A stretch of 35,411 nt of DNA, taken from the NCBI GenBank assembly GCA_043819795.1, contig JBDREN010000080.1, positions 1 through 35,411 on the forward strand, in the 5' to 3' direction. Both the position numbers and the translations under genes were made by a program. This document shows positions 251 through 24,842 of this stretch, piece after piece; the first letter of the stretch is position 1, and each line of letters begins with the position of its first letter. This stretch comes from Elusimicrobiota bacterium (GTDB lineage Bacteria > Elusimicrobiota > Elusimicrobia > UBA1565). The notes beneath the pieces are model-generated. The model had not been told where the DNA came from, did not search any database, and worked only from the letters and a program-made list of their open reading frames with translations.

Positions 251-358
251 ACCTTTCGGGCCATTCGCTGTGATGCCGTAAGACCCCAAGGTTGGTCGCT
301 TGACCGGGGTGATGAAGAGGGTTCCCTCGACGGAGAGCTTCAGGCCGAAATCCCAGAA

Positions 359-404
359 GCTCATAACCTTGAGGTCGTGGGTTCAAATCCCACCCCCGCA
401 CCCA
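359..404 (+). tRNA. tRNA-fMet(CAT) 3'-half fragment, att-like copy 1 (not a full tRNA)
   Basis: GCTCATAACCTTGAGGTCGTGGGTTCAAATCCCACCCCCGCACCCA contains the CAT anticodon loop, T-arm GTGGG/CCCAC and an initiator-type CCCCGCA end. No D-arm or 5' half upstream. Confidence 0.9.
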
Positions 405-672
405 TCTCTGTGGATAGAATCGCTGGCCAGCAAATGGTCAGCGATTCTTGCTTGTAGGTGCGGGAGCTTATAGAAGACAAAGCGGGCCTGACGGTCCCTC
501 GGATGGATTTCGACGCGGTTTATAAAGCCCCGGACTCCCATTTTCCGCTCTGTCATTGTTCCGCGAGCAAATAGCCGGGGCAGGTCATCCAGGTAGCTAG
601 TCATCTCCTCGACAGCAGAATCCACCTGCAGCATAGCCGTGGGCAGGCGCTCGCTGAGAGCCTCCTTTTGGC
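383..672 (-). pseudogene. C-terminal remnant of probable large serine recombinase/integrase
   Basis: YLDDLPRLFARGTMTERKMGVRGFINRVEI..FYKLP resembles LSR C-terminal tails. The frame ends GCGGGI* antisense across the tRNA 3' end. The 5' part is replaced by an IS5 fragment. Confidence 0.6.
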
Positions 673-927
673 CGTTGCCCACCAGGTTTCCCACTGACCG
701 GTGCCCGCCAGGCGTTCAACGCCGCATCAGTGATCCAGATGGTCAAGTCGCCACGCCGGCGTAGACCTTCCTCGTACTCTGGCCAGTTACGCACCCGACA
801 GGGCTTCTTCGTGTATTTATACTGGGTCCGCTTGGGATGATTCATGGTGATAAACTCCGGATGGGATTCCAATACCCAGACTCGAGGGTATCCAGCGTAG
901 CCCATCGAGGAGTCATGCACCAATGCC
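673..927 (-). mobile_element. IS5-family (IS903-like) left-end fragment
   Basis: Terminal GGCATTGGTGCATGA ends at 927. ATG at 845 gives ..RVRNWPEYEEGLRRRGDLTIWI..W..PGGQR, the IS903-group N-terminal motif, then the frame is truncated. Confidence 0.85.
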
Positions 928-1205
928 CCCCGGAAGCGCGCGCCACTCCAAGGCCCCGATGTTCATTCTCCTGCGCAGATACTGGGATGCGGCTTTCTCC
1001 AGCCGGGAGCGGAGCTCGGCGGGAATATCGCGACGTCCCCTTTCCGGCTGACACGATGGTATTATGATTATTTTATAGTCTCTTTCTTCATCCTCCTGTC
1101 AATAAAATGTCCGTGACAAGTCAACATCTTCCTGTTACAGTAATAGCATGCGAACACGGCGCATGGGTATGCGCCGACACGGCTTTGAGAGGAGTGCGGT
1201 GCGCC

Positions 1206-1433
1206 GTGAGACTTCCGCGATTTGTCGGGATGGGGCTGCTGGGTCGCGTCTGCGCTTTGTCGCTTTGCCACCCGTCGCAAGCGGGGGAGGAGACAATCGA
1301 TGTCCTGGTGCAAACCGTGGACCAGGACCGCAACGACGTGCCGGGAAAGCTCCTGTTCTCCACCGACAGCCTCGGCGTCCCCGCCGGCGAGTGGCTGGCC
1401 TCGCCTCATCGCCGGGCCGGGGCCGTCTCGTGA
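1206..1433 (+). pseudogene. Possible truncated N-terminus of a secreted protein
   Basis: GAGGAG upstream of GTG 1206. A signal-peptide-like stretch (..CALSLCHPSQA) is followed by a short mature region and an early stop. Confidence 0.3.
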
Positions 1434-1473
1434 GGTATGACGCTCTGAGGCAGACGGATCATCCAAGGAGGCG

Positions 1474-4400
1474 GTGATGTTCAAGAACGAAAGACATCCG
1501 TTCCCCCATTCCGCCGTGAGCGCTTCCGCGGCGGCCGCACTCACGGTCTTCCTCTTGTGGGCGACGACCGTCCACGCGGTCACGACGGGCAACTGTCCCG
1601 GCGGAACCGTGAGCTACTGGACGTTCGACGCCGGCGACGCCAGAGACGATTTCGGCGCCAACGACGGAACGGCATATGGCGCGACCCCGGTCGGAGGCAT
1701 CATCGGCCTGGCGTCGGACCTCGACGGAATCGACGATTATATCGAGGTCCCCCACGTGGCGGACCTGACCTTGAGCGGAGCCGACTCCTATACCGAGGTC
1801 CCGCATTCGGAAAGCCTGACCCTGAGCGGCCCGGAAGTATACGTCGAGGCCCCGGACTCGGCGAGCCTGGACCTGCCGGGGGACCGGTTCACCCTCGAGG
1901 CGTGGATCAACATGCGCGGCTACGCGGGCGATAACAGGACCATCTTCGGCAAGATCGGGTGGACCGACACGTCCTCATGGAGCTACGCCCTCCACGTGAC
2001 GCCGGACGGCGGCGTGCTCGCCCAGTTCGTGAACGAGACCGGCGGGTCTTTCTCCCTTTCCGCCCCGGCAGGGTCGATCCGGAGAGGCGCCTGGCAGCAT
2101 GTGGCGGCCACCTACGACGGGGCCAAGCTACGCATCTACGTCGACGGAGCCGAGGCCGCGTCGCGCGACGCCTACGGGCGTCTCAGGCAAAACGATCATC
2201 CTCTCTCCATCGGCAGATGGCACGCGGCCGATCCCAATCCCTTCATCGGGCTCATCGACGAGGCGGCGGTCTACGGCCGGGCCCTGAGCGCCGAAGAGGT
2301 CGCCGCGCACCACGCCGCCGGCCCGGACGGCTATTGCGCGCAGGGCTGCCCCGCGGGGATGGCGGGCTATTGGCGCTTCGACGAAGGGGCGGGAGCGGAC
2401 GCCTACGACTCCTCCGGCAACGGCAATCACGCGATCGTCCTTGGGGCGGCTTGGGCCGAGGGGACGGCGGGCTCCGCCCTGGACTTCGTCTCCCAGCAGT
2501 TCACCCTCGAGGCTTGGATCAACCCAAGATCATACGCGGGCGATCATCGAGCCATCATCGGAAAAATCGGCTGGGACGACAGCAGCTCGTGGAGCTACCA
2601 GCTGCGCGCCGCCTCGGACGGGGCGCTGTACGCCGGATTCGCCGCCGAAACCGGCGGCGCGTTCTCGCTGACCAGCTACGCCGGCGCGCTCAATACCGGG
2701 GTCTGGCAGCACGTGGCGGCCGTCTACGACGGCGCCAGCCTGCGCCTCTACCTCGACGGGGCCGAGATCGCGTCGCGGGACGCGTACGGAAGCCTCAGGC
2801 GCAACGAATATCCGGTCTCCATCGGAAGGTGGCACGCGGGGTATCCCAACTGGTTCGAGGGGATGATCGACGAGGCGGCGGTCTACGACCGGGCGCTGAG
2901 CGCCGATGAGGTCGCCGCGCACCACGCCGCCGGCCCGGACGGCTACTGCGCCGGAGACTGCCCCGCGGGGATGGCGGGCTATTGGCGCTTCGACGAGGGC
3001 GCGGGGGCGGACGCCTACGACTCCTCCGGGAACGGCAACGACGGGGCCGTTTACGGGGCGGATCGGGCCGCCGGGATGTCGGGCGCCGCGCTGGACCTGG
3101 TTTCCCAGCAGTTCACCCTGGAAGCCTGGATCAACCCAAGAAAGGTCGCCGGCGATCACAGAGCCGTCATCGGCAAGATCGGCTGGGACGACAGCAGCTC
3201 GTGGAGCTACCACCTGCACGCCGCTTCGGACGGCGGACTGCTCGCCGGCTTCGCCGCAGAGACCGGCGCCACGTTCTCGCTGACCAGCTACGCCGGCGCG
3301 CTCCAGACCGGCGTCTGGCAGCACGTGGCGGCCGTCTACGACGGCGGCAGCCTGCGCCTCTATCTCGACGGGGCCGAGGTCGCGTCGCGGGAGGCGCACG
3401 GGAGGATCCGACGCAACGAATATCCGGCCTCCATCGGAAGATGGTACGCGGCCGATTCGAACCGGTTCGACGGATCCATCGATGAGGCGGCGGTCTACGA
3501 CCGGGCCCTGCCGGCCGAGGAGATCGAGCGGCATTACCGCAACGGCTTCGCCCGCGAGGGCTACTGCGAGACGGCCCGGCCCGCCTGCGGAGACGGGGAT
3601 ATCTTCCCTTTCACCGAGCGGTGCGACGACGGCGACGCCTCCGGCGGCGACGGGTGCTCCGCAGCGTGCGCGGTCGAGGCGGGCTACAGCTGCGCCGCGG
3701 AGCCCAGCGCCTGCTTCCCGGATTCCGACGGCGACGGCGCGCCCGACGAAGTCGACGCCTGCGACAACGCCGGCGCTCCGGCCGGGGCGGCCGGCTATTG
3801 GCGCTTCGAGGAGGAAAGCGGGACCACGGCCTTCGATTCCGCCGGCCCGAGCCCCGGGACGATCGCGGGCGCGGCGTCCGCCGCCGGGAAGGTCGGCCGG
3901 GCTCTCCGCTTCGACGGAGCCGATGATTATGTCGAGGTCCCTTCCTCGACCAACCTGGAGCTGGCCGGCGCCGGTGCGCATGTCGCGGTACCGCCTTCCG
4001 AAAGCCTGAATCTGGGCCGCTCTCATGCGCACGTCGAGGTGCCTCATTCGCCGGCGCTGGGCTTGACCGGAGTCAGCGCATACGTCGAGGTGCCCGGCTC
4101 GCCAAGCCTGGACCTGGCCGGCGACCGCTTCTCCCTCGAGGCGTGGATCAACCCGCGGGGATACGCAGGCGATTATAGGGCCATATTCAGCAAGATCGGC
4201 TGGACCCATATCAGCTCGTGGAGCTACCACCTGCGCGTCAACCCCGACGGCGGCCTGCGCGCCTACGTCGTCAACGAGAATGGGACATCCTTCGCGCTCA
4301 ACAGCCCGCCCGGCTCGGTCCGGAGGGACGCCTGGCAGCACGTGGCGGCGGTCTACGACGGCGCCAAGCTGCGCATCTACATAGACGGAGCCGAGGCCGC

Positions 4401-7400
4401 GTCGCGCGACGCCTACGGACGCCTCAGGCACAACGACTATCCCCTCTCCATCGGCAGATGGTATTCGGGCGATCCCAGCCCCTTCATCGGCCTCATCGAC
4501 GAGGCGGCGGTCTACGACCGGGCGCTGAGCGCCGATGAGGTGGCCGCGCACCACGCCGCCGGCTCGGCCGGCTATTGCTCCGGGGGATGCCCCGCGGGGA
4601 TGGCCGGCTATTGGCGCTTCGACGAGGGCGGCGGAGCGGACGCCTACGACTCCTCGGGCAACGGCAACCTCGGGACGGTCCACGGAGCCGCTTGGGCGGA
4701 CGGAATGGCGGGCGCCGCCCTGGACTTCATCGATGAGCAATTCACCCTGGAGGCGTGGATCAATCCGCGGGGATATGCCGGCGATTACAGGGCCATCTTC
4801 AGCAAGATCGGCTGGACCCATATCAGCTCGTGGAGCTACCACCTGCGCGTCAACTCCGACGGCGGCCTGGCCGCCTACTTAGTCAACGAGGACGGCGCCT
4901 CCTTCGCGCTCAACAGCCCGCCCGGCTCGGTCCAGAGGGACGCCTGGCAGCACGTGGCCGCCGTCTACGACGGCGCCAAGCTGCGCATCTACATAGACGG
5001 AGCCGAGGCCGCGTCGCGCGACGCCTACGGACGCCTCAGGCACAACGACTATCCCCTCTCCATCGGCAGATGGTATTCGGGCGATCCCAACCCCTTCATC
5101 GGCCTCATCGACGAGGCGGCGGTCTACGACCGGGCGTTGAGCCCGGCGGAGGTCGCCGCGCACCACGCGGCCGGCGCGGACGGCTATTGCGCCGGAGGCT
5201 GCCCCGCGGGGATGGCCGGCTATTGGCGCTTCGACGAAGGCGGCGAAGCGGACGCCTACGACTCATCCGGCAACGGCAACCTCGGGACGATCCACGGAGC
5301 CGCCTGGGCGGACGGAATGGCGGGCGCCGCGCTGGACTTCGTTTCCGAGCAGTTCACCCTGGAGGCGTGGATCAATCCGCGGGGATATGCCGGCGATTAC
5401 AGGGCCATCTTCAGCAAGATCGGGTGGACCCATATGAGCGCGTGGAGCTACCTTCTGCGCGTCAACCCCGACGGCGGCCTGGGTGCCTACTTCGTCAACG
5501 AGGACGGCGCCTCCTTCGCGCTCAACAGCCCGCCGGGCTCGGTCCGGAGGGACGCCTGGCAGCACGTGGCGGCGGTCTACGACGGCGCCAAGCTGCGCAT
5601 CTACGTGGATGGGGCCGAAGCGGCGTCGCGCGACGCCTACGGACGCCTCAGGCAGAACGACTATCCCCTCTCCATCGGCAGATGGTATTCGGGCGATCCC
5701 AACCCCTTCATCGGCCTCATCGACGAGGCGGCGGTCTACGACCGGGCGTTGAGCCCGGCCGAGATCGCCGAGCACCACGCGGCCGGCGCGGACGGCTATT
5801 GCGCCGGAGGCTGCCCCGCGGGGATGGCCGGCTATTGGCGCTTCGAGGAGGGCGGCGGTTTGGTCGCCCACGACTCCTCGGGATACGGCAATCACGGCGC
5901 CGTCAGCGGGGCGGCTTGGGCCGCCGGGGTCGCGGGCGGCGCGCTGGACTTCGTCTCCCAGCAGTTCACCTTGGAGGCTTGGATCAACGCGAGGACGTAC
6001 GCCGGCGATTACAGGACGCTCCTCGGCAAAGGCGACTGGAACGCCTCGGGGGCGTGGAGCTACGCCCTGCACGTCGCTCCGGACGGCGGGCTGAGCGCGA
6101 ACTTCGTCAACGAGGCCGGCAACTCGTTCCCGCTGGCCAGTTCCCCCGGCACGATTACGCCGGGCCTCTGGCAGCATGTCGCGGCCGCCTACGACGGCGG
6201 CAGGCTGCGCTTATACGTCGACGGCGCCGAGGTCGCCTCGCGCGACGCCTACGGCGGCCTCAGACAGAACGGCTACCCGCTGAACATCGGCCGATGGCGG
6301 CTCGGGGATCCCAACTGGTTCGACGGCAGCATCGACGAAGTCGCGGTATTCGACAGGGCCTTGCCCGCGCTCGTCCTATCCGAGCACTACGCCCGCGGCT
6401 CCGAGCAAGGGGGCTATTGCGCGCCCTCCTGCGTCGATGAGGACGAGGACGGGTACGGGGCGAGCGGCGGCGCGGACTGTCTCTATCCCGAGCCGGACTG
6501 CGACGACGCCTCCGATCGCGTGCACCCCGGCGCGCCCGAGCTCTGCGACGGCCTGGACAATGACTGCGACGGCGCGGTCGACGGCGGCTTCCCAGACGCG
6601 GACGCGGACGGCGCCGCGGACTGCGTGGACCCGGACGACGACGGCGACGGCCGGGCCGACGAGACGGACAACTGTCCCCTGCTCGCCAACCCCGGCCAGG
6701 AGGACGCGGACGCCGACGGCATGGGCGACGCGTGCGACGCCTGCCCGAACGACGCGGACAACGACGCCGATGCCGACGGCGTGTGCGGCGACGTCGACAA
6801 CTGCCCGGCGATCGCCAACACGGGCCAAGCGGACGGCGACGCCGACGCCATCGGCGACGCGTGCGACGCCTGCCCGAACGACGCGGACAACGACTCCGAC
6901 GGCGATACCGTCTGCGGCGACATCGATAATTGCCCGGCGACAGCCAACACCGGCCAAGCCAACGCCGACGCCGACGCCCTGGGCGACGCCTGCGACGCCT
7001 GCCCGGCCGATCCGGACAACGACGCCGACAAGGACGGAGTCTGCGGCGACATCGATAATTGTCCAGCGACGGGCAACGCGAGCCAGGAGGACGCCGACGC
7101 CGACGGCTTGGGCGACGCCTGCGACCCGCAGACCTGCGGCAACGCCGTGCTCGAGTTCCCGGAGCAGTGCGACGACGACAACGCCGCGGCGGGCGACGGC
7201 TGCTCGGAGCTGTGCGCCGTCGAGCTGCCCCCGGAGGTGGACGCGGCCGTGGACGTCGAGCAGAACGACGACGGGACCTACGACTACAGCATCGAGCAGC
7301 AAGACGGCACCCCGCTCGTCGACGTGGACGACAGCTCGGAGCTCATCGATATGGGCGGCATCGACATAAGCCACGAGACCAGCCCCTCGGCCAACGGGGT

Positions 7401-7962: not shown

Positions 7963-7976
7963 GGAGTTATTGCGTG

Positions 7977-8216
7977 GGATGCCGGCAACGATGATTGCAT
8001 GCTGCCCTCGGAGACACGCAAGGCCGCGTCAATTTTGGGATGGCGGAGGTTGCGGTAATTGGGATTTGCTGCAATCATCGAGAACCGCAAGGTCCCTGGG
8101 CGGGCGCGAGGCGCCGCCAGGGGGGTTCTCGACGGAGAGGTTCTGAGCGGGCCGTTTTCTAAGGTGCGAAGCTCATAACCTTGAGGTCGCAGGTTCAAAT
8201 CCCACCCCCTCACCCC
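7977..8216 (+). repeat. ~240-bp att-like element copy 2 (conserved arm + tRNA-fMet 3' half at 8171-8216)
   Basis: GGATGCCGG..GATGATTGCA..CAATCATC.AGAACC..GGTTCTCGACGGAGAGGTTCTGAGCGG..CGAAGCTCATAACCTTGAG..GGTTCAAATCCC is colinear with 13868-14106 and 24560-24800. It begins 14 bp after the LamG gene stop. Confidence 0.92.
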
Positions 8217-8304
8217 TATTCCAGACTATCAATTCGTCTGGCTTAGTTTCAGGGGAAAGGTCACTCCTTCTCCGTCGCAGCTTGACTGTCCAAGTCTAGT
8301 AGTC

Positions 8305-8352
8305 TTGACATGAAGCAAGCAGGAGAAGTATAATATGTGCATATTTTCATAT
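8305..8352 (+). promoter_or_regulatory. Sigma70 promoter with overlapping ArsR-type operator
   Basis: TTGACA (8305-8310), 18-bp spacer, TATAAT (8329-8334), followed by an ATATG..CATAT imperfect palindrome. Confidence 0.75.
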
Positions 8353-8700
8353 ATGGCGAACCAGTCACCCTCCACCTCGGACTTGGTTTTCAGGATCAAA
8401 GCGGACTTTTTGAAAGCCCTCGCCCATCCCGTGCGGCTCGCCATCATCGAATACTTGAAGAACCGCGAGTCGTCTGTGGGGGAAATGGTCAACAAACTGG
8501 GGGTGGAGCAATCCGGCCTCTCCAAGCACCTGGCCCTGCTGCGCCATGCGGGAATACTCAGGTTCCGGCAGGAGAAGGTCACGGTGTATTACTCGATCCG
8601 AGACCACGACATCTTCAAGGTTCTGCGGCCCATCGCCGAGATACTTAGGAAAAAACTCAAGGAAAGCCAAGGGATGCTGGAGCATTTGGGTGAAGTGTGA
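8353..8700 (+). CDS. ArsR/SmtB-family transcriptional repressor
   Basis: KADFLKALAHPVRLAII..SVGEM..QSGLSKHLALLRHAGIL..VYYSI. Start taken at ATG 8353 because the 8335 ATG abuts the -10. Confidence 0.92.
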   Translation: MANQSPSTSDLVFRIKADFLKALAHPVRLAIIEYLKNRESSVGEMVNKLGVEQSGLSKHLALLRHAGILRFRQEKVTVYYSIRDHDIFKVLRPIAEILRKKLKESQGMLEHLGEV

Positions 8701-8724
8701 TCTCTTTTTTCTCTTATATATGTC

Positions 8725-8745
8725 TATAATGGCATATTATCATAT
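8725..8745 (+). promoter_or_regulatory. Second -10 plus operator copy upstream of the PEPCK-like gene
   Basis: TATAAT followed by GCATATTATCATAT (8732-8745), a 13/14 match to GCATATTTTCATAT (8339-8352). Confidence 0.6.
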
Positions 8746-8922
8746 CTTCCATTGCATCTAGAGCCAAGGCTTGTTCGTTATGGTAAAAGAAAATATTCAT
8801 TTTGGCTTTAAGGATGGTTTGGAGGCACGTTGCTATCGATAGCGCCGATGCCGCTTTGTGCCCCCGATTCGCCTCACCTTAGCCGCTTCTTGCGCCGTGG
8901 TTCAACCCGAGGAGGGTAAGAC

Positions 8923-13452: not shown

Positions 13453-13521
13453 CGGCACCCGTACTCAAGATGGTACCGGCTCCATCATCTTCGGACCCGG
13501 GATTGAACAAGGGGGACCCAA

Positions 13522-14106: not shown

Positions 14107-14110
14107 TCTC

Positions 14111-15177: not shown

Positions 15178-15592
15178 AAGCGCTCCATTAGCCGGCGCCG
15201 CTGATCCCGCTCAAAAGAATAAGCGCCTGCGTCCAATCGCGGGCAAGACTGGAAAATGCGGAAGAAGTCCTCGCCCCTGGGAAAGCCATTCTATCACTTT
15301 TGCCGGTCCTCCGCGCCGATCCACAGATCGCGACTATTCGATAGTGTCCCATAATCGCGCACGCGGTCATGAAGCCGGCAAGCAGGGCGCGGCATCTCGG
15401 ACGACACATCGACCAGGAAGGTCGAGAAGCTTCTCCCGGCGCAAGTTCCGGACGCACTTGGATTTACATTCTTGGCCCACCTTCCCTTGCAGGGTTTGGC
15501 GTGCCCTATCCCATCCGGAAGCCAAGCTCATGCACGACTTCGGGAGACTATCGACTATTCCTTCTGCCCGCTTCTATGCTAGGCTCCGATCG

Positions 15593-18049
15593 ATGGCATC
15601 TGCAGACAGGATTGCATCGTATTGGCACGGGGTTATCAGGTGGATCAATGAGCCCGTGGCCGCATTGGGCGACTTCACCTACGGCACCAAGCTCATTGGG
15701 GTAGGCGTCGGAGCACTCATCCTGTTATTTCTCATCAGCCATACGATCCGTATTGTCGCGATCTCAGCCAGGGCCCTCTGGAGCTCTATTCGGCGGTTCT
15801 GGATCACCGCCTTCCCCGCCGAAATCCCCGGCGCCGATACCGACGACCAATCGGAACAGCTCGAGCAGGACATCTCCAAGGTTCTCCGAGAAATCACTCA
15901 AGCGGCATCCTCCGCCTACTCGGAGGCGACGGAAGGCGCGAGATCCGAAGCCCAGCGCTTATCCCTCACGCTCCTTGAGGAATGCCGGCTTTCCGCGGCA
16001 AGAATCCGGAGTTCTTTCCAGAAAGAGAAGCCCTCGATTTTGATCGAGAGCCTGGAGGCCGAAGCCCGCAAGATAGGCCACCTGCTGCTGAACGCCGCCT
16101 CCGAGCATCACCTTGCCGCAGCGAGAGTCCCGCCGGGCCGGGCCGCCATGGAAAGCATGCGATCCATTCTGCAAAGGTTGACGCACGGGTCTCCCACCGG
16201 ATACCGCGTCCGGCAGATAAAGGAACAGCTCAGCTTTGAACCCGGAGACACCCTGCTTGTCACCGCCTTCAAGCTTCAGCGCCGCGTGGCGCTGTTCTTG
16301 ACAGGACTGGTTGGCAAGGCGCGGGCTCAGGGCAGAGTACGCCAAGTGCCGTTCCGTTCCATACTGACAGAAGTCCTGTTAAAAGACCTGATCGAAGAAC
16401 TCGGCCCGCCCGCCAAGACGTTCGACCAGCAGTACGAGAACCTCGCCACCCATATGCAGGAAACAGCCAAGATAGCCAGGTTCAACCTGCACTCGGCGGG
16501 AGCGCTGCTCGAGAACGACGGAGACTCCGATGAACTGGCCCGCAAGGAAGCCCTCCAGCTTGCGCTCGATGGACTCGACCGCACCGGCGCCAGGCTGGAG
16601 AGGCTCCCCAAAGAAGCCGATATCTTCTGCGGCGCGCTCATGGAATCCGTCACCTCCGTTGTGGAAAGAGCCGGCAGGCGAATCAGGAACGACTGCGACG
16701 TTGCCGACACGTTCGGCGAACGGGTGGCTGCCGCGGCAGAATCACTGCTGTCTTCCTGGCGCCTGTTCGAAGAGCGGGGACAACGCAGACTGCGTTCCAC
16801 CCGCACATGGGCAGAAGTGCTGCGGACCCGTTGGAGCAAGTTATTTGTCCGCGTCCAAGAGGGATTGGGGATCATTAAACCCCAGATCGGGCCCTCCCAG
16901 GCGACCCTTGAGGAGGCTACCGTCGAGTTCGCGATCAAGGACACGCCGCCCCTCTACCAGCGGTTGTTCCGATCCGAGCCATTGACCGATGAAGACTTCC
17001 TGACCGGAAGGGAGCCCTTCATGCCGGCCGTCCGGACGATCCGCCAGCGGCTCGATGCGGACCTTTCCGCCGCCATGGCGGTCACCGGACCGGTGGGCAC
17101 GGGAAAGACTAGTTTCCTTCGGTGCGCCCTGCAAAGATATTTCTCGGACAAAGAACCCATTTGGACGCAGCCCGACAGTCACCTAAGGTCCGAGTCCGAC
17201 TTTGTGGATTTCATATCGAAAGCCGTTGAGCTGCCCGGAGGCGATCGGCCGAGAGACGTCCAAACGCTTGCCTCCGCCATCCGCGGCCTGCCCGACAAGC
17301 CGGTGATCATCATCGAAGGCGGGAGCATGCTTCACCTTAGACGAGTCGGCGGATTCGGTGCCATGCGCGCGCTATTCTCCCTCCTTTCAGGCACAGAAGG
17401 CAAGTCCTGCTGGGTCATTACATTCTCCCAGACCGGCTGGGAGTATCTGGACCAGACGTTCGGCATCAACAGACGATTCGACGCGACCATCACCCTTAGG
17501 GGCCTGAGCCGCACGGAACTCGAAGCCGCGATCATGGCCCGGCACGAGGTCAGCGGCTACGATCTGGAGTTTACCGCAGGCCCCGGCCTTTCAACGGACA
17601 TCCGGTGGAAGCTCCGCAAGGTCAAGGACCCCGAAAGACGTCAGACTATACTGCGCGAGGAGTTCTTCGATACGCTGCACGCCACCGACGACCGTAATCT
17701 TCACGCCGCGCTTTACCATTGGCTCCGTTCCACCCGGAGCGTGGGCCGGCGCCAAGTGCGCGTCGCCCCGCTTGCGCCATTTCGCAAAGAGACGCTGGGC
17801 GAACTCACTCTGGGCGAGCTCTTCGGGATGCTTTACGCGCTGGAGCACGACCACCTGACCCCCTCTCTTTACTCTCAAATGCTTCGATCCACCCTGACCG
17901 AAAGCCGGACCCTGCTCGACTACCTGGCCCACAGGCAGATCTTTTCCGTCCGCCGAAAGGAAGGATCGGAGTCCCGATATTCTCCCAATCCCATCCTGCT
18001 CGGGCCGGTTCTGGAGGCGCTGCGAGACAGGAATTTCATCCATGATTAA
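15593..18049 (+). CDS. Membrane-anchored P-loop/AAA-like ATPase with long helical N-terminal region
   Basis: TM helix LIGVGVGALILLFLI, Walker A GPVGTGKTS, Walker-B-like VIIIEG. Start uncertain (15530 or 15593; the ORF is open from 15080). Confidence 0.75.
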   Translation: MASADRIASYWHGVIRWINEPVAALGDFTYGTKLIGVGVGALILLFLISHTIRIVAISARALWSSIRRFWITAFPAEIPGADTDDQSEQLEQDISKVLREITQAASSAYSEATEGARSEAQRLSLTLLEECRLSAARIRSSFQKEKPSILIESLEAEARKIGHLLLNAASEHHLAAARVPPGRAAMESMRSILQRLTHGSPTGYRVRQIKEQLSFEPGDTLLVTAFKLQRRVALFLTGLVGKARAQGRVRQVPFRSILTEVLLKDLIEELGPPAKTFDQQYENLATHMQETAKIARFNLHSAGALLENDGDSDELARKEALQLALDGLDRTGARLERLPKEADIFCGALMESVTSVVERAGRRIRNDCDVADTFGERVAAAAESLLSSWRLFEERGQRRLRSTRTWAEVLRTRWSKLFVRVQEGLGIIKPQIGPSQATLEEATVEFAIKDTPPLYQRLFRSEPLTDEDFLTGREPFMPAVRTIRQRLDADLSAAMAVTGPVGTGKTSFLRCALQRYFSDKEPIWTQPDSHLRSESDFVDFISKAVELPGGDRPRDVQTLASAIRGLPDKPVIIIEGGSMLHLRRVGGFGAMRALFSLLSGTEGKSCWVITFSQTGWEYLDQTFGINRRFDATITLRGLSRTELEAAIMARHEVSGYDLEFTAGPGLSTDIRWKLRKVKDPERRQTILREEFFDTLHATDDRNLHAALYHWLRSTRSVGRRQVRVAPLAPFRKETLGELTLGELFGMLYALEHDHLTPSLYSQMLRSTLTESRTLLDYLAHRQIFSVRRKEGSESRYSPNPILLGPVLEALRDRNFIHD

Positions 18050-19001
18050 GGGGCTGCCTCTCACTCTGTCGTTTCTGGTATTCGCCGCTTGCTGGACCGC
18101 GGGATTTTCGCACGCGAGTCCCGCCTCCTCGCCGCCCCCGGCCGAAGAGAACGCCGCGCCTCGGCAGGAAATGCGCGGCAACGCCCCGGGGATGTCCGCG
18201 GCGCTGGCCGCGGGGAAACAAGGGTTGGGAGAGGTCCGCCGCAGCGCTTCGAGACTGAGCGTCAAGATCGTCGCGACGGCATTCCTATTCGCTTTGGCGT
18301 GGCTGACCATCTACATCGGCATCTATATCCTCGACCTTCTCGGTGAGCGCAGCGCGCGATACCGCTTCCTCAAGAAGGGTATTCCCGTGGTCCGCGTCTT
18401 GATCTGGGCAGCCGCCGCCTACATCGTATTCCGGTGGATCTTCTCCCCGACCAGGGAATCCTTTTTCGCGGTGATGACCGCTTCCGGAGTGGCCATTGGA
18501 TTCGCCTCTCAGGACATCCTCAAAAACATCTTCGGTGGGTTGGTCATCATTCTGGATAGGCCTTTCCAAGTCGGGGACAAGATCCGGATCGGAGAACACT
18601 ACGGCGAGGTGGTCGGTATCGGGCTGCGGACGGTGCGTCTTGTCACGTCCGATGACAATCTGGTCACCGTCCCCAACGCCGAAATCGTCAACCGGACGAT
18701 CTCGAACGCCAATTCCGGAGAACTGACCTGCCAGGTCGTCACCGACATACTGCTGCCGCCCGACGCCGACCTACTGGCCGCCAAGCGGATCGCATGGGAG
18801 GCGGCCGTCACTTCCCGATACGTCAATCTCGCCAAACCGGTCGCGGTGCTGCTCCAGGATTGCCCGTCCGAAAAGCAGCTGCGCACAAAGCTGAAGATCA
18901 AAGCCTATGTGCTGGACCCGAGATTCGAGTTCGCATTCTCGAGCGACGTGACCGAGATATTCAAGCTCGCGATAACGGCGGAAGCGGCGCCGAGCACGTA
19001 A
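18042..19001 (+). CDS. MscS-family mechanosensitive channel (with signal-like N-terminus)
   Basis: GVAIGFASQDILKNIFGGLVIILDRPFQVGDKIRIG..GLRTVRL..VTVPN. Overlaps the ATPase stop by 8 nt. Confidence 0.92.
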   Translation: MIKGLPLTLSFLVFAACWTAGFSHASPASSPPPAEENAAPRQEMRGNAPGMSAALAAGKQGLGEVRRSASRLSVKIVATAFLFALAWLTIYIGIYILDLLGERSARYRFLKKGIPVVRVLIWAAAAYIVFRWIFSPTRESFFAVMTASGVAIGFASQDILKNIFGGLVIILDRPFQVGDKIRIGEHYGEVVGIGLRTVRLVTSDDNLVTVPNAEIVNRTISNANSGELTCQVVTDILLPPDADLLAAKRIAWEAAVTSRYVNLAKPVAVLLQDCPSEKQLRTKLKIKAYVLDPRFEFAFSSDVTEIFKLAITAEAAPST

Positions 19002-19082
19002 ACGCAACAGATCGGGCCAGAGAGTCGGCCATAGTCGCGACCCAAGCTTCACGCGGGAAAGGACTCGCCGGAGATACGGCGG

Positions 19083-19533
19083 GGCCCACAAAACACGCCG
19101 TCCGCCTTCAGGATGCAAGTGTGATTCTGGCCGTCACACCGCGTCCCCTCCGAGATAATCGTCCGATTCGCCTCGATAATTACGCCCATAACAATGCACA
19201 TTGCCGTTGGCTCTCAGGATGCACGTATGATAATTCCCAGCCGCCGCGCCTACCGCATCACCCCCAAGATAATCTTCCGCTTCGCCATGGCCGTTGTTTC
19301 CATAGCACGTGACATTGCCGTCCGATCTCAGGATGCAGGCATGCGTCGCGCCGACCGCCACGCCCACAGCATCTCCTCCAGTATAATCCTCCCCTTCCGG
19401 GTTCCTGACCCCACAGCAATCGACATCGCCGTCCGATTTTAGGACGCAGGCGTGAGCAGTCCCGGCTCCGATGCCGGTAAGCCCGTTCGGAATCCCCGCA
19501 CAAACACCGCCATGAGCGCTCGCCGTCCCCGCG
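19083..19533 (-). pseudogene. RCC1-like repeat secreted protein remnant
   Basis: Four repeats: HACVLKSDGDVDC, HACILRSDGNVTCYG, HTCILRANGNVHCYG and, after a frameshift near 19134, HTCILKADG. The 5' end is cut by an IS5 fragment. Confidence 0.75.
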
Positions 19534-19730
19534 CCTGGTGGGCAACGTATTTACGCGAGGATTGCCATCGAGACGGGCCTTAGCGCATGGTATATGGCCT
19601 TGCACTGAGACAGGCCGAAGGGTTCTTGGGGGCCTTGGCACAGCTTTTGGGACTGAGCATTCCGATCCCTGATCACACGACATTATAGAGGCGTGCCAAG
19701 GGGTTGGGCAAGGTGCGCTTTGCTCCGGCA
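19534..19730 (+). mobile_element. IS5/IS903-like internal transposase fragment (pseudo)
   Basis: PGGQRIYARIAIETGL, frameshift, then MVYGLALRQAEGFL..IPDHTTL*RRA, matching the LRQxEGF and PDHTTLSRR motifs. Confidence 0.8.
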
Positions 19731-19731
19731 G

Positions 19732-19837
19732 GGCATTGGTGAATGACTCTTCGATGGGCTACACTGGGTACCCTCGAGTCTGGGTATTGAAGGTCCATCC
19801 GGAGTTTATAGCCATGAATCACCCCAAGCGGACCCAG
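19732..19837 (+). mobile_element. IS5/IS903-like left end + first codons
   Basis: GGCATTGGTGAATGA..ATGAATCACCCCAAGCGGACCCAG is nearly the reverse complement of 822-927. Confidence 0.85.
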
Positions 19838-19838
19838 G

Positions 19839-19878
19839 GCCCCCGCACCCATCTCAGCGAAGAAGCCCGCGCCTTAGC
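19839..19878 (+). repeat. Scar of att element: tRNA 3' tip + left arm of hairpin
   Basis: GCCCCCGCACCCATCTCAGCGAAGAAGCCCGCGCCTTAGC is identical to 14094-14133. Confidence 0.85.
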
Positions 19879-20016
19879 CCAACTTCCGCAGTAAATTAGG
19901 AAAAGTACTGGAATTTCCAGTATCTGGGGTCGAAAGTTGGCACTACATTTTCGGCCCCAGGTCCGGGATCCGCATGCGCCTGGGCAGGGCGATCCCGAGA
20001 ATCTCCCCGGCCCCGG

Positions 20017-22095
20017 TTAATCCGGGACCGGCACCACTTCGATGCCCCCGGCCCCGTAGTGGGCGAAGGCTCCGCTCGCGATCTTGCCCTGGCCCGGCCC
20101 GGTCGTGAGCAAGGGCGCAAGCTCCCAGCCCCCGCCGGCCGATGCCGCGGAGTACCGGATCGCGCCGCTTCCGGGCAGAAGCTCGGCCGCCACCACGGCC
20201 CGGGCTCCGGGGGAAAGGAAGGGATAGAAAAGCGGCTCAAGGCCGCGGGCGATCGCGGTCGTCTCGCCTTGGGCCCAAACCGAAAGCCCGTAAGTGTCCC
20301 CCGAGCGCGCGACATAGGCCACCGCTCCGGGAACGGCGGCCAGGCCGCCGAACGCGTCGGCCGAAGCCACCAGCGTGCGCCCGCCTTCCTCAATGGCCCA
20401 CAGATCTTCCCCCCGGCCGTCCGGCGAGGGCGCCGTCACGAAGCCTTCCTCCGGCCCCGTGAAAAAAGTGCTGAGGATCCCTCCCCGCTCCCGGCGCAAG
20501 GCGTCCATGGAGAGGCCCGCCTTGAGGCCTTTGGGCGTGAAAGACCAGATGCGCTCTTCCACGATCGCCCCATCCTCGTCGAGGCTCCAGGCGGTGAACC
20601 AGAAGCCGCTCCGGTACCCGGCGACCCCCGAGGCCCGAAGGCCGATGGCCGCCAGGTCGAGCCCGCCCTCCGGCACGACCCGGCCCGAGGCGAGATCCGC
20701 CATCGCGACCCGCGACCCGCCGTTTCCCAGGACGAGGATATTGTTCCCCTCCGGGGGCGCCGCGGCCATCTGGAACACGCTCTCAAACGGCAGGGGCACG
20801 AAGTCCACTCTTTCGATCCCGCCTCGCTTGCCGAAGCGCAGAGCGGCCAGGCGCGCGCGCGCCGGGACCCCGGCCGCGTCATAGCCCAGAGCCACCCGGC
20901 CGCCACGAAGCAGAAGCGCCAGGTGGAACGCGTCGGGATCGAGCCCCTCGCTCGGCCATGTGCCGGTAGCCGCGTTGAAACCGACTTTCACCACCTCGGT
21001 CTCCAGGCCGCGGCCTCGCTCGCCGAAGAGCGAAAACACGCCGATATCCGGGTGATCCTTCCGGGATATAAAGGACGGGCCCTGCCCACCGGCCGGTTCC
21101 GGCAGGCGGTTGGCCCGGGCGTAGTTGGGCCACCAGTCCCAAACGGTCCCCCGGGAGCCGTCCTCCTTCCCGAATACGGACTTGAAGCCCTCGTGCCCGG
21201 TGGAGATCCAGCTGATGCCGAGGCCGGACACGGGCTCGACCTCGCCGTCCTGAGCGATGCCATCGCCGTTATAGTCCCGCCAAGCATAAAGGCCGTCGAT
21301 CTCCGCTCCGGAAACCAGGCCGTCTCCGTCCCGGTCGCGTCTTAGCGCGAGGCTCTGGAATCCGTCCTGCCATCCCCCCGCCGATCCGAAAAGGTCGCGT
21401 CCGCTTCGCGGTTCGGGGGAATCGGTCAAGAGCGCGTCACCGCCGGCGATCCATTCGGTCACGTCCCGGAATCCGTCGCCGTCCATGTCAAAGGCGGCGA
21501 AAGGGCCCCGGAGCCTGCTCTCATGGGGCATCCAGTCCCCGCCCGAGGCGGAGAGAACGCCGTCGCCGTCGAGGTCGAGCACCAACGGGCTGGTGAATAC
21601 GGTCCCGTTGAGCCGGTAATCCGTCGCTTGCGCCGCGCCACGGCCCGCCAACGTCACCTCGGTGGGTTGGGCGAAGTACGTGCCATAGCTCCGTCCGTTA
21701 TAAGTATGGTTTCCGCCGCCCGCGCCGAAGCTGGCGGCCAGAGATGCGGCGCTCCCGGCCTTGAAAGGCCCGGCGGCGATGTCCAGATACGCCGGATTCC
21801 CGAGGATGACGTCGAAGACCTCCCGGCTCTGCGGAAAAGCGGCGCTGAAATCCGACGCCATGGCGGCGATGGGCGCGACACGCTCGTAAGCCGCGTCGCC
21901 GGGGGTCAGGCCCAGCGTCCCCAGGGAAAAGGCGGTGGACCGGCCCGCGCCCTCGCCCAGGACGATATCGGTGCCGCCGTCCAAGACCAGGGGCCCGGCC
22001 GATGTCCCGGCCTCCCCCCACATGCTCGGCGCCGCCAGGGCCACCAGCAAAAGGATCTCCGTCAAAACCGACAATGAGCGTCGGAGATTGATCAT
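20017..22095 (-). CDS. Secreted Ca-binding protein (SPLVLDLDGDG-type domain + probable beta-propeller)
   Basis: GGAGGA RBS + ATG 22095 and a signal peptide. SPLVLDLDGDG, FDMDGDG..EW, DRDGDG, WRDYNGDG; Gly/aromatic beta-rich C-terminal half. Confidence 0.75.
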   Translation of the reverse strand: MINLRRSLSVLTEILLLVALAAPSMWGEAGTSAGPLVLDGGTDIVLGEGAGRSTAFSLGTLGLTPGDAAYERVAPIAAMASDFSAAFPQSREVFDVILGNPAYLDIAAGPFKAGSAASLAASFGAGGGNHTYNGRSYGTYFAQPTEVTLAGRGAAQATDYRLNGTVFTSPLVLDLDGDGVLSASGGDWMPHESRLRGPFAAFDMDGDGFRDVTEWIAGGDALLTDSPEPRSGRDLFGSAGGWQDGFQSLALRRDRDGDGLVSGAEIDGLYAWRDYNGDGIAQDGEVEPVSGLGISWISTGHEGFKSVFGKEDGSRGTVWDWWPNYARANRLPEPAGGQGPSFISRKDHPDIGVFSLFGERGRGLETEVVKVGFNAATGTWPSEGLDPDAFHLALLLRGGRVALGYDAAGVPARARLAALRFGKRGGIERVDFVPLPFESVFQMAAAPPEGNNILVLGNGGSRVAMADLASGRVVPEGGLDLAAIGLRASGVAGYRSGFWFTAWSLDEDGAIVEERIWSFTPKGLKAGLSMDALRRERGGILSTFFTGPEEGFVTAPSPDGRGEDLWAIEEGGRTLVASADAFGGLAAVPGAVAYVARSGDTYGLSVWAQGETTAIARGLEPLFYPFLSPGARAVVAAELLPGSGAIRYSAASAGGGWELAPLLTTGPGQGKIASGAFAHYGAGGIEVVPVPD

Positions 22096-22480
22096 GACTT
22101 CCTCCAATTGAGTCCGCGGATTGCGCACAAAAATCCTTTTACCCGCCGGTCCGGCGGACCCGGTCTTGCCCCCCAGACGCGGTGATCGGAACCGGGAATG
22201 GAGACCTGGGGAGATGACTAATAATATTAATCTGCGCACCCCCCCGCAATAGCTATACGGCAACCCGGCGGCCAAGCGGGCGCTGCGAAAAGCCTATACC
22301 TGAGTTCCACCACTCTTTTCCTCTCGAAGACCCCGAGACCCACGCGCGCGCCGTCCTTCCGGATCAGCGCTTGAAAGGATTCCAGCGACTGTTGGATAAA
22401 TGACAACGATCGTGTCACAATAGTCAACATCGCGGCCTTATGGAGCTAGCGGCCGCCCGCATCGTAAAAGATATAGCCCT

Positions 22481-22542
22481 TGAAAAATAAGGATTTATGT
22501 ATTATGATATTTCTATAGGTATATTATTATTTCTAATACGAT
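22481..22542 (+). promoter_or_regulatory. AT-rich promoter/operator of XRE gene
   Basis: TTGAAA..TATGAT. Direct repeat TATTTCTA (22508, 22528) lies inside a GTATTA..TAATAC inverted pair. Confidence 0.5.
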
Positions 22543-23328
22543 ATGGATATAAAGACACCCGCGATCTCCATTGGAGCGCGCCTGCGCGAGCTGCGCAAAG
22601 AACGGCGCTGGACGCAACAGCGTCTAGCCGCCTTGCTTGGCATTACGCAGGGCCATCTGTCTCAACTGGAGCACGGGAAGAGAGAATTCACGGCCCGGCA
22701 GCTACTGACTATTCTAAAGCACTTCAACGTGCAGATCGACTACTTCTTTCCAGAGAAAGCCCCCGCCGGGAACCAGATTCAGAATGCCCTGGCAAGACAG
22801 GGCGCCAGCCATCTCGTCGAAAGCACCGACATCCTCCCCACGGAAAGACTCAAGCGCGCGATCGATACGATTCGCGAAACGCTCGTTTCCGCCGATTCCT
22901 CCAGGCAGATTGCCGCCGTGGCCCCTGTCTTTGTCAACCACGCCGGACAATTCAATCTGACACGCCTGAGGAACGAATTCGCAGCGCTCGGCCTGGAGAA
23001 CCGATTGGGATGGGCCATCGACTGCACCCTGGAAGCGATCCGGTTGGAAAGCGCCCAAGTTTTGCCAAGGGACCGGCGCCTGAAATATCGGCGCGCCGCC
23101 GTCATCATCGAGTCCTTCTTTGCTCCCTGGCGGATTGTTCCCGGCCCCACGGCCGACTCGCGGGTCCCCCCTCAATACGATGTCCTCGATCCGGAGATCA
23201 CCAGCCAGGAGACCCTCAAAGAGGTCATCGAGAACCTTTCTCCCATAGCGCAAAGATGGAAGATCGCCACGGGGATCGAGGTTGATGATTTCGTAAGAGC
23301 ATTAAGAGGCGCCCGTGGCGCTGATTAG
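22543..23328 (+). CDS. XRE-family HTH protein with extended C-terminal domain (putative antitoxin)
   Basis: IGARLRELRKERRWTQQRLAALLGITQGHLSQLEHG. Confidence 0.88.
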   Translation: MDIKTPAISIGARLRELRKERRWTQQRLAALLGITQGHLSQLEHGKREFTARQLLTILKHFNVQIDYFFPEKAPAGNQIQNALARQGASHLVESTDILPTERLKRAIDTIRETLVSADSSRQIAAVAPVFVNHAGQFNLTRLRNEFAALGLENRLGWAIDCTLEAIRLESAQVLPRDRRLKYRRAAVIIESFFAPWRIVPGPTADSRVPPQYDVLDPEITSQETLKEVIENLSPIAQRWKIATGIEVDDFVRALRGARGAD

Positions 23329-23911
23329 AGAATTCCTGTCGGAAATCGACGCGAAGTGGAAGGCGATCGGCGGAGAACCGCTCAATCTGCGAATCATCGG
23401 ATCGGCCGCGCTGATGCTTCGATGCGACTACGAGCGCGGGACCAAAGACGCGGATGTGTTGGAGGTCAAGGACGGCCCACCGGCCATCAAAGACCAGCTG
23501 CTCACCCTGGCCGGGGAAAAGACGGACATCCACAGACAATTCCGCATCCATATCGACGTGGTGGACGGAGCGATCCTGTTCCTGCCGCAGCGGCCTGTTT
23601 TCCACCCTCTTCCGAGCTTATCCCTCAAGAACTTCAACATCGAGGTTCTCGATATTGGCGACGTCGTGCTCAGCAAGCTCAAGCGCTACAACAGCGACGA
23701 CAAGAACGACATCCGCGCGATGGCTCAGAGAGAACTGGTCGGCCATAAACGGCTCGTTGCCCGCTTCGCGGCCGCCGCGGACTGGTTCTCGATGGATGCC
23801 CGTGCTCAGGACGTGGCTCGTTATCTTCGGAATCTCCACGCGGCCGAGCGGGACATCCTCGGTTTCCCGCCTTCCAAGATCGAGCTGCCCGACTCCATGC
23901 AGGACGAATAG
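23315..23911 (+). CDS. Nucleotidyltransferase, DUF6036/AbiEii-like (putative toxin)
   Basis: IIGSAALML..RGTKDADV (GS + DxD) and DVVLSKLKRY..DD..DI. Overlaps the XRE stop by 14 nt. Confidence 0.8.
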   Translation: MALIREFLSEIDAKWKAIGGEPLNLRIIGSAALMLRCDYERGTKDADVLEVKDGPPAIKDQLLTLAGEKTDIHRQFRIHIDVVDGAILFLPQRPVFHPLPSLSLKNFNIEVLDIGDVVLSKLKRYNSDDKNDIRAMAQRELVGHKRLVARFAAAADWFSMDARAQDVARYLRNLHAAERDILGFPPSKIELPDSMQDE

Positions 23912-23928
23912 TCTCAGCGGATCTTGTG

Positions 23929-24099
23929 CAAGGGACCGGCGCCTGAAATATCGGCGCGCTGCCGCCATCATCGAGTCCTTCTTTGCTCCCTGGCGGATTT
24001 TTCTGGGCCCCACGGCCGACCCGCGGGCCCCCCCTCGATACGATGTCCTCGACCCGGAGATCACCAGCCAGGAGCCCCCAAAAAAGGTCATCGAGAACC
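23929..24099 (+). repeat. Duplicated internal fragment of XRE gene (~23066-23236)
   Basis: CAAGGGACCGGCGCCTGAAATATCGG..GGTCATCGAGAACC, with scattered substitutions. Confidence 0.9.
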
Positions 24100-24150
24100 A
24101 CAAGGTTCCGCCCTGGCGATTGCGGCCTGCTGCGACGTGGGGAGTCGGTC

Positions 24151-24465
24151 CTACCGCTTCGATTCCAGCGTGGCGAGCCTTCTGTCGTGGTCCTGGAGCT
24201 TCTCGCCGTGGGCATCCAGCGTCTTGGAAATGGTGACGGACTCGCGGGCGTAGGTTTCCAGACGGCCCAGGAAGGAGTCGATAGCGCTCGTGACCCGGTT
24301 GAACCCCCGGCCCATCTCCGTCCTCAGGGTCTCGATCTTCTGATCCGCCTTGGCGTCAGCGGTTACGACGGCCTTGGCCAATCTCTGAATATCGGCCTTG
24401 AGCGCCTTCTCAACCGCCTTCAACTGAGCCTGGGTCGCGGGGTTGTTGCCGTTCTTGGAGGGCAC
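24151..24465 (-). CDS. Small coiled-coil hypothetical protein
   Basis: ATQAQLKAVEKALKADI..LQDHDRRLATLE. GTG 24465 lies 6 nt after an extended -10 TGCTATCAT, so it may be leaderless. Confidence 0.7.
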   Translation of the reverse strand: MPSKNGNNPATQAQLKAVEKALKADIQRLAKAVVTADAKADQKIETLRTEMGRGFNRVTSAIDSFLGRLETYARESVTISKTLDAHGEKLQDHDRRLATLESKR

Positions 24466-24559
24466 GAGGGGATGATAGCAGTTTCCCCTTAGCCCCGACA
24501 GGGCCAAAGGCCCAGCCGAAGTTTCAAAAAGTAAAGCGCTCCGGGGGCTGTCCCAATCG

Positions 24560-24800
24560 GGATGCCGGAAACGATGATTGCATGCTACCCTCGGCGCACT
24601 CGTAGGGCCACTTCATTTTTGAGTGGGGGATGTTACGCAAATTGGGATTTGCCACAATCATCGAGAACCACAAGGTTCCTGGGGCGGGCGCGAGGCGCCG
24701 CCAGGGGGGTTCTCGACGGAGAGGTTCTGAGCGGGCCGTTTTGGGAGGCTCGAAGCTCATAACCTTGAGGTCGCGGGTTCAAATCCCACCCCCGCACCCA
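24560..24800 (+). repeat. att-like element copy 4 (arm + tRNA-fMet 3' half at 24755-24800)
   Basis: Colinear with copies 2 and 3. Confidence 0.92.
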
Positions 24801-24804
24801 TCTC

Positions 24805-24842
24805 AGCGACGAAGCCCGCGCCCTAGCGCGGGCTTCGTCGCT
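24805..24842 (+). terminator. 17-bp perfect hairpin after the tRNA fragment
   Basis: AGCGACGAAGCCCGCGC-CCTA-GCGCGGGCTTCGTCGCT. Compensatory A:T to C:G change versus 14111-14148. Confidence 0.7.

Follow-up and report, generated by a model that had tools for sequence, protein, structure and literature searches.

In the Islander survey of genomic islands, a displaced 3' fragment of a tRNA gene marks the end of an island and crossover at the anticodon is the commonest arrangement (2083 of 3919; PMC4383910); the survey also records tandem islands, four of them with three or more members, on the terms that each member has an integrase and that Xer-class enzymes are excluded. Tandem islands have been described in Dehalococcoides as well, where they lie within ~100 kb downstream of a single RNA gene, ssrA, and are bounded by its fragments; 15 of 31 have no integration module and were read as possible cis-mobilizable elements (CIMEs; PMC3146451), the name given to older elements that have no integration and transfer genes but have kept their attachment (att) sites (PMC5704250). 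Here we analyze a comparable locus in an Elusimicrobiota bacterium, namely the whole of contig C80 (JBDREN010000080.1; assembly GCA_043819795.1), which is 35,411 nt long and is called the window hereafter. It carries four displaced 3' halves of the initiator tRNA gene, tRNA-fMet. The explanation that we hold to be very probable is that integrative elements accreted in tandem at this gene and then decayed, leaving cis-mobilizable remnants; the array exemplifies a process that is already known, here in a lineage that has been little studied, and not a new integron-like machine. This reading is carried by the anatomy of the junctions, by an intact integrase beside the split tRNA gene, by integrase remnants, and by the architecture of the same element family in relatives. 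In the following, C denotes contigs of this assembly, G genomes (G000 being the present one) and L loci, mostly from relatives.

The genome under study comprises 4.99 Mb in 241 contigs, with 66.8% G+C, and is 90% complete. As an original prediction made from the window had claimed, the four 3' halves lie on the same strand and start at one base: they begin at 359, 8171, 14061, and 24755 (7812, 5890, and 10694 bp from start to start), and the match of each to the tRNA begins at the G preceding the anticodon loop. A tRNA scan found no whole tRNA in the window. The colinear arm of ~195 bp that had been noticed upstream of three halves is equally real, since the arms of copies 2-4 are 83-88% identical in pairwise comparison (tRNA half included); that of copy 1, described as divergent, has only the family motifs in common with the others and is, on those motifs, a second subtype of the same arm. 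The fifth scar proposed at 19839 turns out to be a 40-bp exact copy of 14094-14133, with neither core nor arm.

An intact tRNA-fMet and a recombinase were to be sought to the left of the window, which is not feasible in a window that is a whole contig, but both are found elsewhere in the assembly. The terminal sequence of C175 is a tRNA 5' half; it shares a 19-nt overlap with the end of C23, and joined they give a 77-nt tRNA-Met(CAT), which we read as the initiator from its sequence and from the presence of two other CAT tRNAs in the genome. Further displaced halves lie on C23, C77, C211, and C235, three of them behind a long arm; the same tRNA half occurs twice on C23, where one copy completes the tRNA, and once on each of the others. 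In total, the genome has one intact tRNA-fMet gene, across two contig ends, and eight displaced halves, which are co-oriented within each of C80 and C23. With one mismatch allowed, an 18-mer from the core region has 10 matches here versus at most three in each of 400 other genomes of the phylum, while a tRNA-based search of 100 genomes of the order, with up to nine candidates scored per genome, gave up to six matches in one (G221). The depth of the array, with its eight displaced halves, is unusual.

On C23, an intact gene for a 322-aa tyrosine recombinase begins ~200 nt behind the intact tRNA. The protein has Phage_int_SAM_1 and Phage_integrase domains with the catalytic boxes present; it is short and XerC-like, has no match to an arm-binding N-domain, and scores 203-207 bits against the XerC and XerD models, below their equivalog cut-offs. 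In the recombinase tree it falls, at a position that is not exactly resolved, in an open clade together with tRNA-proximal, upstream, and second recombinases of relatives. The gene heads a unit of 13.4 kb which is closed by the same 195-bp arm and carries, as cargo, genes for an ATPase, a kinase, NorB, a hemerythrin, a PALP enzyme, and a methyltransferase. The notion that the cassettes are integrase-less by design is not supported, since this arm also ends a unit whose integrase is intact and decayed copies of the integrase follow other junctions.

These remnants occupy four places among the distal units: the internal junction of C23 (aa 1-37), the junction of C77 (aa 3-93 and 158-194, interrupted by an AbiE module), the start of C136 (aa 5-20), and copy 4 of the window, where the fragment is inverted. 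The C77 piece is 86% identical to the intact gene and differs from it 12, 5, and 22 times at codon positions 1, 2, and 3 over 91 codons, a bias toward the third position which indicates descent from a separate, once working integrase gene. Tails of serine recombinases are found at two further places, behind copy 1 and behind the C235 half (the latter recognized by translation and by its likeness to L018 and L149), so that a second type of element has used the tRNA 3' end. The upstream arms are kept in the distal units. Both arms, including the downstream P' arm, are kept at copy 4 and at the C77 and C23 junctions; copy 3 has ~107 nt of the P' arm, and copies 1, 2, and C235 have none. We infer that the units behind copies 1 and 2 also had an integrase formerly. 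The claim that no block of the window has an intact integrase or transfer gene stands insofar as Pfam domains of integrases, relaxases, and type IV secretion systems are absent from the 41 window open reading frames (ORFs) scanned, but traces of recombinase genes are present at 24927-25000 and 452-649.

In mechanistic terms, an incoming circle would carry an attP composed of the P arm, the anticodon-loop core with the tRNA 3' half and terminator, the P' arm, and the integrase gene. The XerC-like tyrosine integrase would recombine this circle into the intact tRNA at its 7-nt anticodon loop, the loop serving as overlap and the stem halves as core sites, with the 3' half supplied by attP. Insertion would restore the tRNA and push the previous 3' half, together with everything behind it, downstream; because every insertion displaces the older half, each internal junction would join the P arm of the newer unit to the half and left end of the older one. 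Older units would subsequently lose their integrase by deletion, inversion, or insertion of insertion sequences (IS) or toxin-antitoxin genes, becoming cis-mobilizable remnants that keep their cargo; integrase loss may immobilize useful cargo and so leave CIMEs. This model agrees with the published three-step scheme for CIMEs (PMC5704250), and the anticodon-centered sites of tyrosine integrases form the basis of its crossover step (PMC4383910). We infer in this way both the crossover point and the order in which the units arrived. The hybrids of P arm and 3' half that had been ascribed to repeated integration at the anticodon loop are thereby supported, as is the view that the window units are now non-autonomous. 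The features of the window are the following:

2 to 250, plus strand: 3' end of an AAA_14/DUF4143 ATPase gene, cut by the contig start (weak DUF4143 match); it is the final cargo gene of the preceding, left-hand unit.
257 to 358, plus strand: attR-type arm, copy 1, short subtype, with CAAGG 73 nt from the core; best match of the arm profile (E 3.9e-9).
359 to 408, plus strand: tRNA-fMet 3' half, copy 1, comprising crossover core and displaced half; 100% identical over 50 nt to the half that completes the tRNA on C23.
383 to 694, minus strand: remnant of the C-terminal part of a large serine recombinase, pointing toward the tRNA half (tblastn match at 452-649, E 3.6e-5, with L142:1302-2915, Recombinase/Resolvase, as query).
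673 to 937, minus strand: end fragment of an insertion sequence, which we take to be IS5-like; inverted copy at 19722-19837, 84% identity to C232.
1474 to 7962, plus strand: cargo, a 2162-aa surface protein with LamG and TSP3 repeats (Pfam scan).
7976 to 8170, plus strand: ~195-bp arm, copy 2, long subtype with inverted repeat (arm alignment).
8171 to 8215, plus strand: tRNA-fMet 3' half, copy 2, with no downstream arm kept.
8353 to 13819, strand not specified or both: cargo for an ArsR-type regulator and for PEP-carboxykinase-like, TPR, and CBS proteins; G+C 0.585.
13868 to 14060, plus strand: ~195-bp arm, copy 3.
14061 to 14165, plus strand: tRNA-fMet 3' half, copy 3, with a hairpin (14111-14148) and the first part of the P' arm; over 107 nt it is 81% identical to the region upstream of the intact integrase.
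14293 to 19001, strand not specified: cargo, two MscS-domain genes and a large ORF with an ATPase domain.
19839 to 19878, plus strand: scar made of the tRNA 3' end and half of the hairpin, 100% identical over 40 bp to 14094-14133; it abuts the IS end at 19722-19837.
22543 to 23911, plus strand: HTH_3 and DUF6036 nucleotidyltransferase pair, 52% and 55% identical to L134:4422-5216 and 3845-4435, where the module lies at the arm end of a complete element.
24088 to 24109, plus strand: 22-bp arm fragment around CAAGG, fused to an incomplete second copy of the HTH gene.
24154 to 24507, minus strand: 118-aa ORF with no Pfam match, the start region of which also precedes the arm of the C23 integrase unit (91% over 101 nt).
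24558 to 24754, plus strand: ~195-bp arm, copy 4.
24755 to 24921, plus strand: tRNA-fMet 3' half, copy 4, with a hairpin (24805-24842) and the P' arm; 79% identical over 171 nt to the region upstream of the intact integrase.
24927 to 25000, minus strand: inverted 5' fragment of the integrase gene of the array (87% over 75 nt, E 2e-17; weak tblastn match, residues 9-35).
25049 to 35411, strand not specified: cargo up to the contig end, with Fic, TPR, DUF2079, a second LamG gene, and an ISL3 transposase (Pfam scan).

Some of this cargo deserves separate mention. The PEP-carboxykinase-like protein (8923-10554), encoded behind the ArsR-type regulator, is a divergent member of the ATP type that scores below the curated NCBIfam cut-off. 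The minus-strand region 20020-22065 holds a GC-rich ORF of 682 aa with no Pfam or NCBIfam match and no usable Atlas match. The 3' part of the HTH gene is partially duplicated at 23898-24118 and 28548-28768, and the first of these duplicates ends in the 22-bp att-arm piece, joined via a short shared word.

The arm itself belongs to a wider family. A profile built only from the upstream sequences of 25 relatives was searched over the 4.99 Mb of this genome, and its top eight matches are the eight arms described here (E 3.9e-9 to 4.7e-3, the next match being at 0.13); the arm is thus the right-hand att arm of the family and not a chance likeness. Its grammar consists of a -10-like box, CAAGGTT, N8, an inverted half-site, a second motif, and the core. 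CAAGGTT, with at most one mismatch, lies 70-86 nt before the core in 23 of the 25 sequences from relatives and in all eight arms here. The -10-like box follows a strict pattern in 20 of those 25 and in two of our eight, and it rests on alignment, since a consensus promoter and terminator scan of 13700-14400 found nothing. In both arms, CAAGGTT copies repeat the core half-site and would most simply be accessory or autoregulatory sites for an enzyme that has no arm-binding domain. CAAGGTT-N8 was also considered as an internal cassette site for the second recombinase discussed below, and rejected: strong scores are confined to arms and cores, none occurs just downstream of the second recombinase genes inspected, and the long-arm copies score below the matrix threshold.

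The six long arms have a sharp 5' boundary and a 5' extension that holds an inverted repeat, the halves of which start 82-83 nt apart in all six copies. Motif-bearing segments are 86-98% identical, and the ends of the inverted repeat have mean identities of 88-92% versus 61% in the fixed-length spacer between them. Such an inverted repeat of fixed length in an att arm is unusual; paired protein sites or mirrored promoters would be its likeliest roles. Among loci from other genomes examined, the 5' extension has no match, and in 40 relatives only the tRNA-half portion of the long arm was matched; exact long-arm patterns were absent from metagenome and viral contigs, while a looser family pattern was found in six short metagenome contigs. 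Curated Rfam families gave a single marginal tRNA match, at the C77 junction, in the window plus five array contigs, and one DNA run (share 0.05) over 7700-25200 of the window returned short pieces only, with no joints and nothing spanning.

The contigs C23, C211, C136, C77, and C80 sum to 78 kb if they belong together, as they probably do. C136 and C77 are the only array contigs with an exact overlap. A link between C80 and C77 through a split ATPase gene is plausible from the sequence of their ends: C77 terminates in the N-terminal part of such a gene and C80 starts with the C-terminal part, with no overlap, and C22 shares the same end. The right end of C80 lies in a multicopy IS. A conserved motif that follows the unoccupied tRNA-fMet of relatives was not found in this genome, so that the distal end of the array could not be fixed. 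Two other contigs show related sites. C235 also carries, ~320 bp past its tRNA-fMet half and in the reverse orientation, the 5' half of a tRNA-Ser(CGA) gene (L024:446-488), with purine-synthesis genes after it; islands belonging to two different tRNAs seem to have been fused or rearranged there. At 2674 and 8389 on its minus strand, C232 (L025) has a bare core that has no 3' half and whose upstream motif resembles that of the family, as well as a degenerate half among housekeeping genes, which we read as possible older scars or secondary sites.

Relatives show what the complete elements look like. The integrase has relatives at E ≤ 1e-50 in 37 of 201 genomes of the class, 35 of the 36 others being in the same order; more distant ones, mostly of 34-52% identity, are chiefly found in Chloroflexota, frequently right behind other tRNAs. 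The orthologues lie behind an intact tRNA-fMet or behind a hybrid junction: in relatives' loci with more than 500 nt downstream, the integrase follows 14 of 30 intact tRNAs and six of 30 hybrid junctions, a rate that is biased because these loci were partly chosen by integrase. Complete elements (L129, L137, L141, and L142) have the order tRNA, integrase, cargo (restriction-modification, Thoeris, and others), Replic_Relax-like gene or VirD4-like coupling protein, second tyrosine recombinase, modules of toxin-antitoxin type, arm, and tRNA 3' half. The relaxase call derives from an Atlas match (score 0.97, with PF13814 on 16% of that cluster), a structural match to the PF13814 model (TM 0.74), and one sub-threshold Pfam match in a homologue. 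L148 has VirB4-, VirB6-, TrbI-, and coupling-protein-like genes. The ancestors of the present units would have been transferred by these relaxase or conjugation genes of the family.

The second tyrosine recombinase forms a clade directly behind the relaxase-like or coupling gene in L129, L130, L132, L134, L137, L141, L146, and L148, where it may serve in resolution or mobilization. There is also a mirror class, in which insertion is on the tRNA 5' side and the 5' half is displaced; such halves form arrays upstream of the tRNA gene, accompanied by a related divergent recombinase, in L147 (G003:C66), which has three, and in L144/L145 (G146:C6), indicating that tRNA-fMet serves as an insertion hot spot on its 5' and its 3' side. 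In the present genome, C175 has a divergent recombinase gene upstream of the tRNA; it is frameshifted, is 66% identical to the recombinase of a 5'-side island, and groups with the recombinases of such islands. Behind the 3' ends of tRNA-fMet, 17 distinct loci of relatives (L005, L009-L017, L120, L129, L139, L150, L151, L153, and L154) have a conserved motif of ~45 nt with a small hairpin plus terminator, which is possibly a small RNA or a processing signal.

Several observations weigh against accretion and decay. The order of the contigs is not established, and C80 joins none of the other array contigs directly. The integrase-bearing unit of C23 has no match to a relaxase or second recombinase; with no relaxase in the window either, the hallmark of integrative and mobilizable elements (IMEs) or integrative and conjugative elements (ICEs) is absent from both, and queries for coupling protein, VirB4, VirB6, and TrbI were unmatched across the 90%-complete genome. 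Copies 1 and 2 keep nothing of P' arm or integrase. Every one of the six long arms is complete up to a common 5' boundary, with the integrase side cut at scattered points; this asymmetry is not significant (Fisher p 0.19), leaving selection to keep arms after integrase loss unsupported. Moreover, much of the cargo resembles gene families elsewhere in the genome, which simple import does not explain. The last 945 bp of the first LamG gene (7020-7964) have 88% identity with a gene that neighbors tRNA-Gly on C182, and the shared gene ends 12 bp before arm 2; that tRNA-Gly(CCC), at C182:29248-29321, anchors a second array with five displaced, nearly whole 3' fragments (C182:34399, C52:17977, C52:23517, C5:6919, and C164:1454). 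Similarly, window positions 1-287, the ATPase gene end plus the start of arm 1, are 97% identical to C22:30403-30689, a copy that ends just before the CAAGG motif and is followed by a different gene. Two breakpoints fall at this motif, the other being that of the 22-bp arm piece in the HTH duplicate.

How else could the locus be read? The units might be satellite cassettes that are still active, which the tRNA-proximal integrase excises, one at a time or several together, and re-inserts in cis or in trans, with att arms under selection and the array serving as a reshufflable store of cargo. We consider this improbable. The sharp boundary of the long arms and the high identity of their motif segments against the fixed spacer would fit, but arm conservation can date from the autonomous past of the units, and the asymmetry between arm and integrase sides is within chance, as noted above. 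A cognate intact integrase is present in the genome, four Replic_Relax-like genes lie elsewhere in it, the copy 4, C77, and C23 junctions retain both arms, and integrase-poor stretches with several junctions exist in relatives too (L138, L139, and L143); yet all three complete window units lack a full P' arm on the left, because copies 1 and 2 have none and copy 3 only the first ~107 nt, and no duplicated unit or alternative order is seen. Mobilization of the window units in trans is possible in principle; the one DNA run gave no joints, and the genomes compared include no second member of the genus. The fullest form of this idea, to which we give the same small chance, makes the long arm a selected cis-element, has the one intact integrase move the integrase-less units, and has cargo swapped in up to the arm edge from other islands of the chromosome; the locus would then be a tRNA-anchored, single-integrase platform of ~80 kb for gene capture and shuffling, integron-like in function but based upon double-strand att hybrids.

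Integrons are defined by IntI, attI, and attC. A platform of that kind, on which one recombinase dedicated to the task takes up cassettes that were always without an integrase, via a folded single-strand site at a tRNA-derived attI, is what the original prediction came close to in calling the array integron-like; it seems to us hardly credible. The gene upstream of the tRNA on C175 has the position of intI at attI, but it is frameshifted, groups with 5'-side island recombinases, and, like the C23 enzyme, is not IntI (the latter scores 86.8 bits, in two stretches, against the integron-integrase model TIGR02249, which has a cut-off of 265). The inverted repeat of the arm does fold, with z of -1.1 to -4.7, but the spacer has z near 0 or positive in 11 of 12 folds, so the signal comes from the terminal repeat alone; the covariation term of the consensus fold is unfavorable (+2.67), and five of 72 pairs show two-sided change, at least one of which lies only in the tRNA arm. 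On these folds and the Rfam search, with no attC model run, we have rejected the arm as a structured RNA or attC. The units, of 5-13 kb, are multi-gene and occur in either orientation. Integrase remnants stand at the start of several, and these remnants largely refute the integron-like reading. Highly unlikely, too, is that the arm is a dispersed repeat of the miniature inverted-repeat transposable element or repetitive extragenic palindromic type, or that the assembly has chained unrelated contigs through the tRNA repeat. Assembly breaks do occur at or beside the repeat on C23, C175, C211, and C235, and the inverted repeat bounds a segment of ~95 bp of fixed length. But every long arm, six of six, is joined to a tRNA half and none is free, the 22-bp fragment being the only stray piece, so that the scatter away from tRNA halves that would have undermined the prediction is not seen. 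Furthermore, the copies differ by 8-20%, far beyond what k-mer collapse allows; flanking cargo has a G+C of 0.585-0.633 in four of five segments versus 0.668 for the genome; and the same type of junction lies inside long contigs of relatives. Tandem accretion followed by decay remains our preferred explanation.

This explanation extends the accretion-and-decay model to an order-wide, apparently undescribed family of tRNA-fMet elements, with two XerC-like recombinases, a PF13814-like relaxase or conjugation genes, and arrays on both sides of the tRNA. Within the literature accessible to us, searches on islands of Elusimicrobia and Elusimicrobiota, on tandem or cis-mobilizable arrays, and on PF13814 elements brought up no account of the family, and one on integron-like tRNA cassette arrays returned no papers. 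One genome here offers a natural series from intact integrase to bare junction, and the grammar of the arm is defined well enough to test the use of accessory sites by an integrase that has no arm-binding domain. If integrase-less units were truly mobile, they would constitute a compact system for multi-gene capture, of interest to engineering.

With integrons, the locus has in common a row of cargo units, a conserved recombination site between them, and one recombinase gene beside; it differs in having no IntI and no attC-type site, in using the tRNA core as crossover, and in units with integrase remnants of their own. Instead of small, co-oriented, single-gene cassettes, these units span 5.9-13.4 kb and hold several genes on both strands. 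Prochlorococcus tycheposons, as their report describes them, are tRNA-anchored, stacked elements with partial tRNAs between them and fragmented integrases as remnants, and new arrivals push older elements outward (10.1101/2020.12.28.424599). Their mobility was shown by PCR and resequencing (10.1101/2020.12.28.424599); their replication and packaging modules have no match in our Pfam scans, and the family here has relaxase or conjugation genes instead. The Dehalococcoides islands differ in target, in their 20-bp tmRNA repeat, and in cargo, which in that account is mainly rdhA (PMC3146451). Since the Islander survey, by its described rules, demands an integrase per member and excludes the Xer class (PMC4383910), it would largely miss an array like this one, and any finder with either rule would miss most of it. 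Close counterparts are the CIME, ICE, and IME families, for which the sources describe successive integrations at one gene with chimeric internal att sites, older elements that keep att sites after losing integration and transfer genes, and a PF13814-type relaxase with a VirD4-like coupling protein (PMC5704250, PMC5357655), which in our case are found in the elements of relatives. In streptococcal IMEs, as presented there, the PF13814 relaxase accompanies serine integrases (PMC5704250, PMC5357655), whereas the family here has two tyrosine recombinases. What sets the Elusimicrobiota array apart from the CIME families is its target, the anticodon loop of tRNA-fMet, its short XerC-like enzyme, and its at least eight displaced halves.

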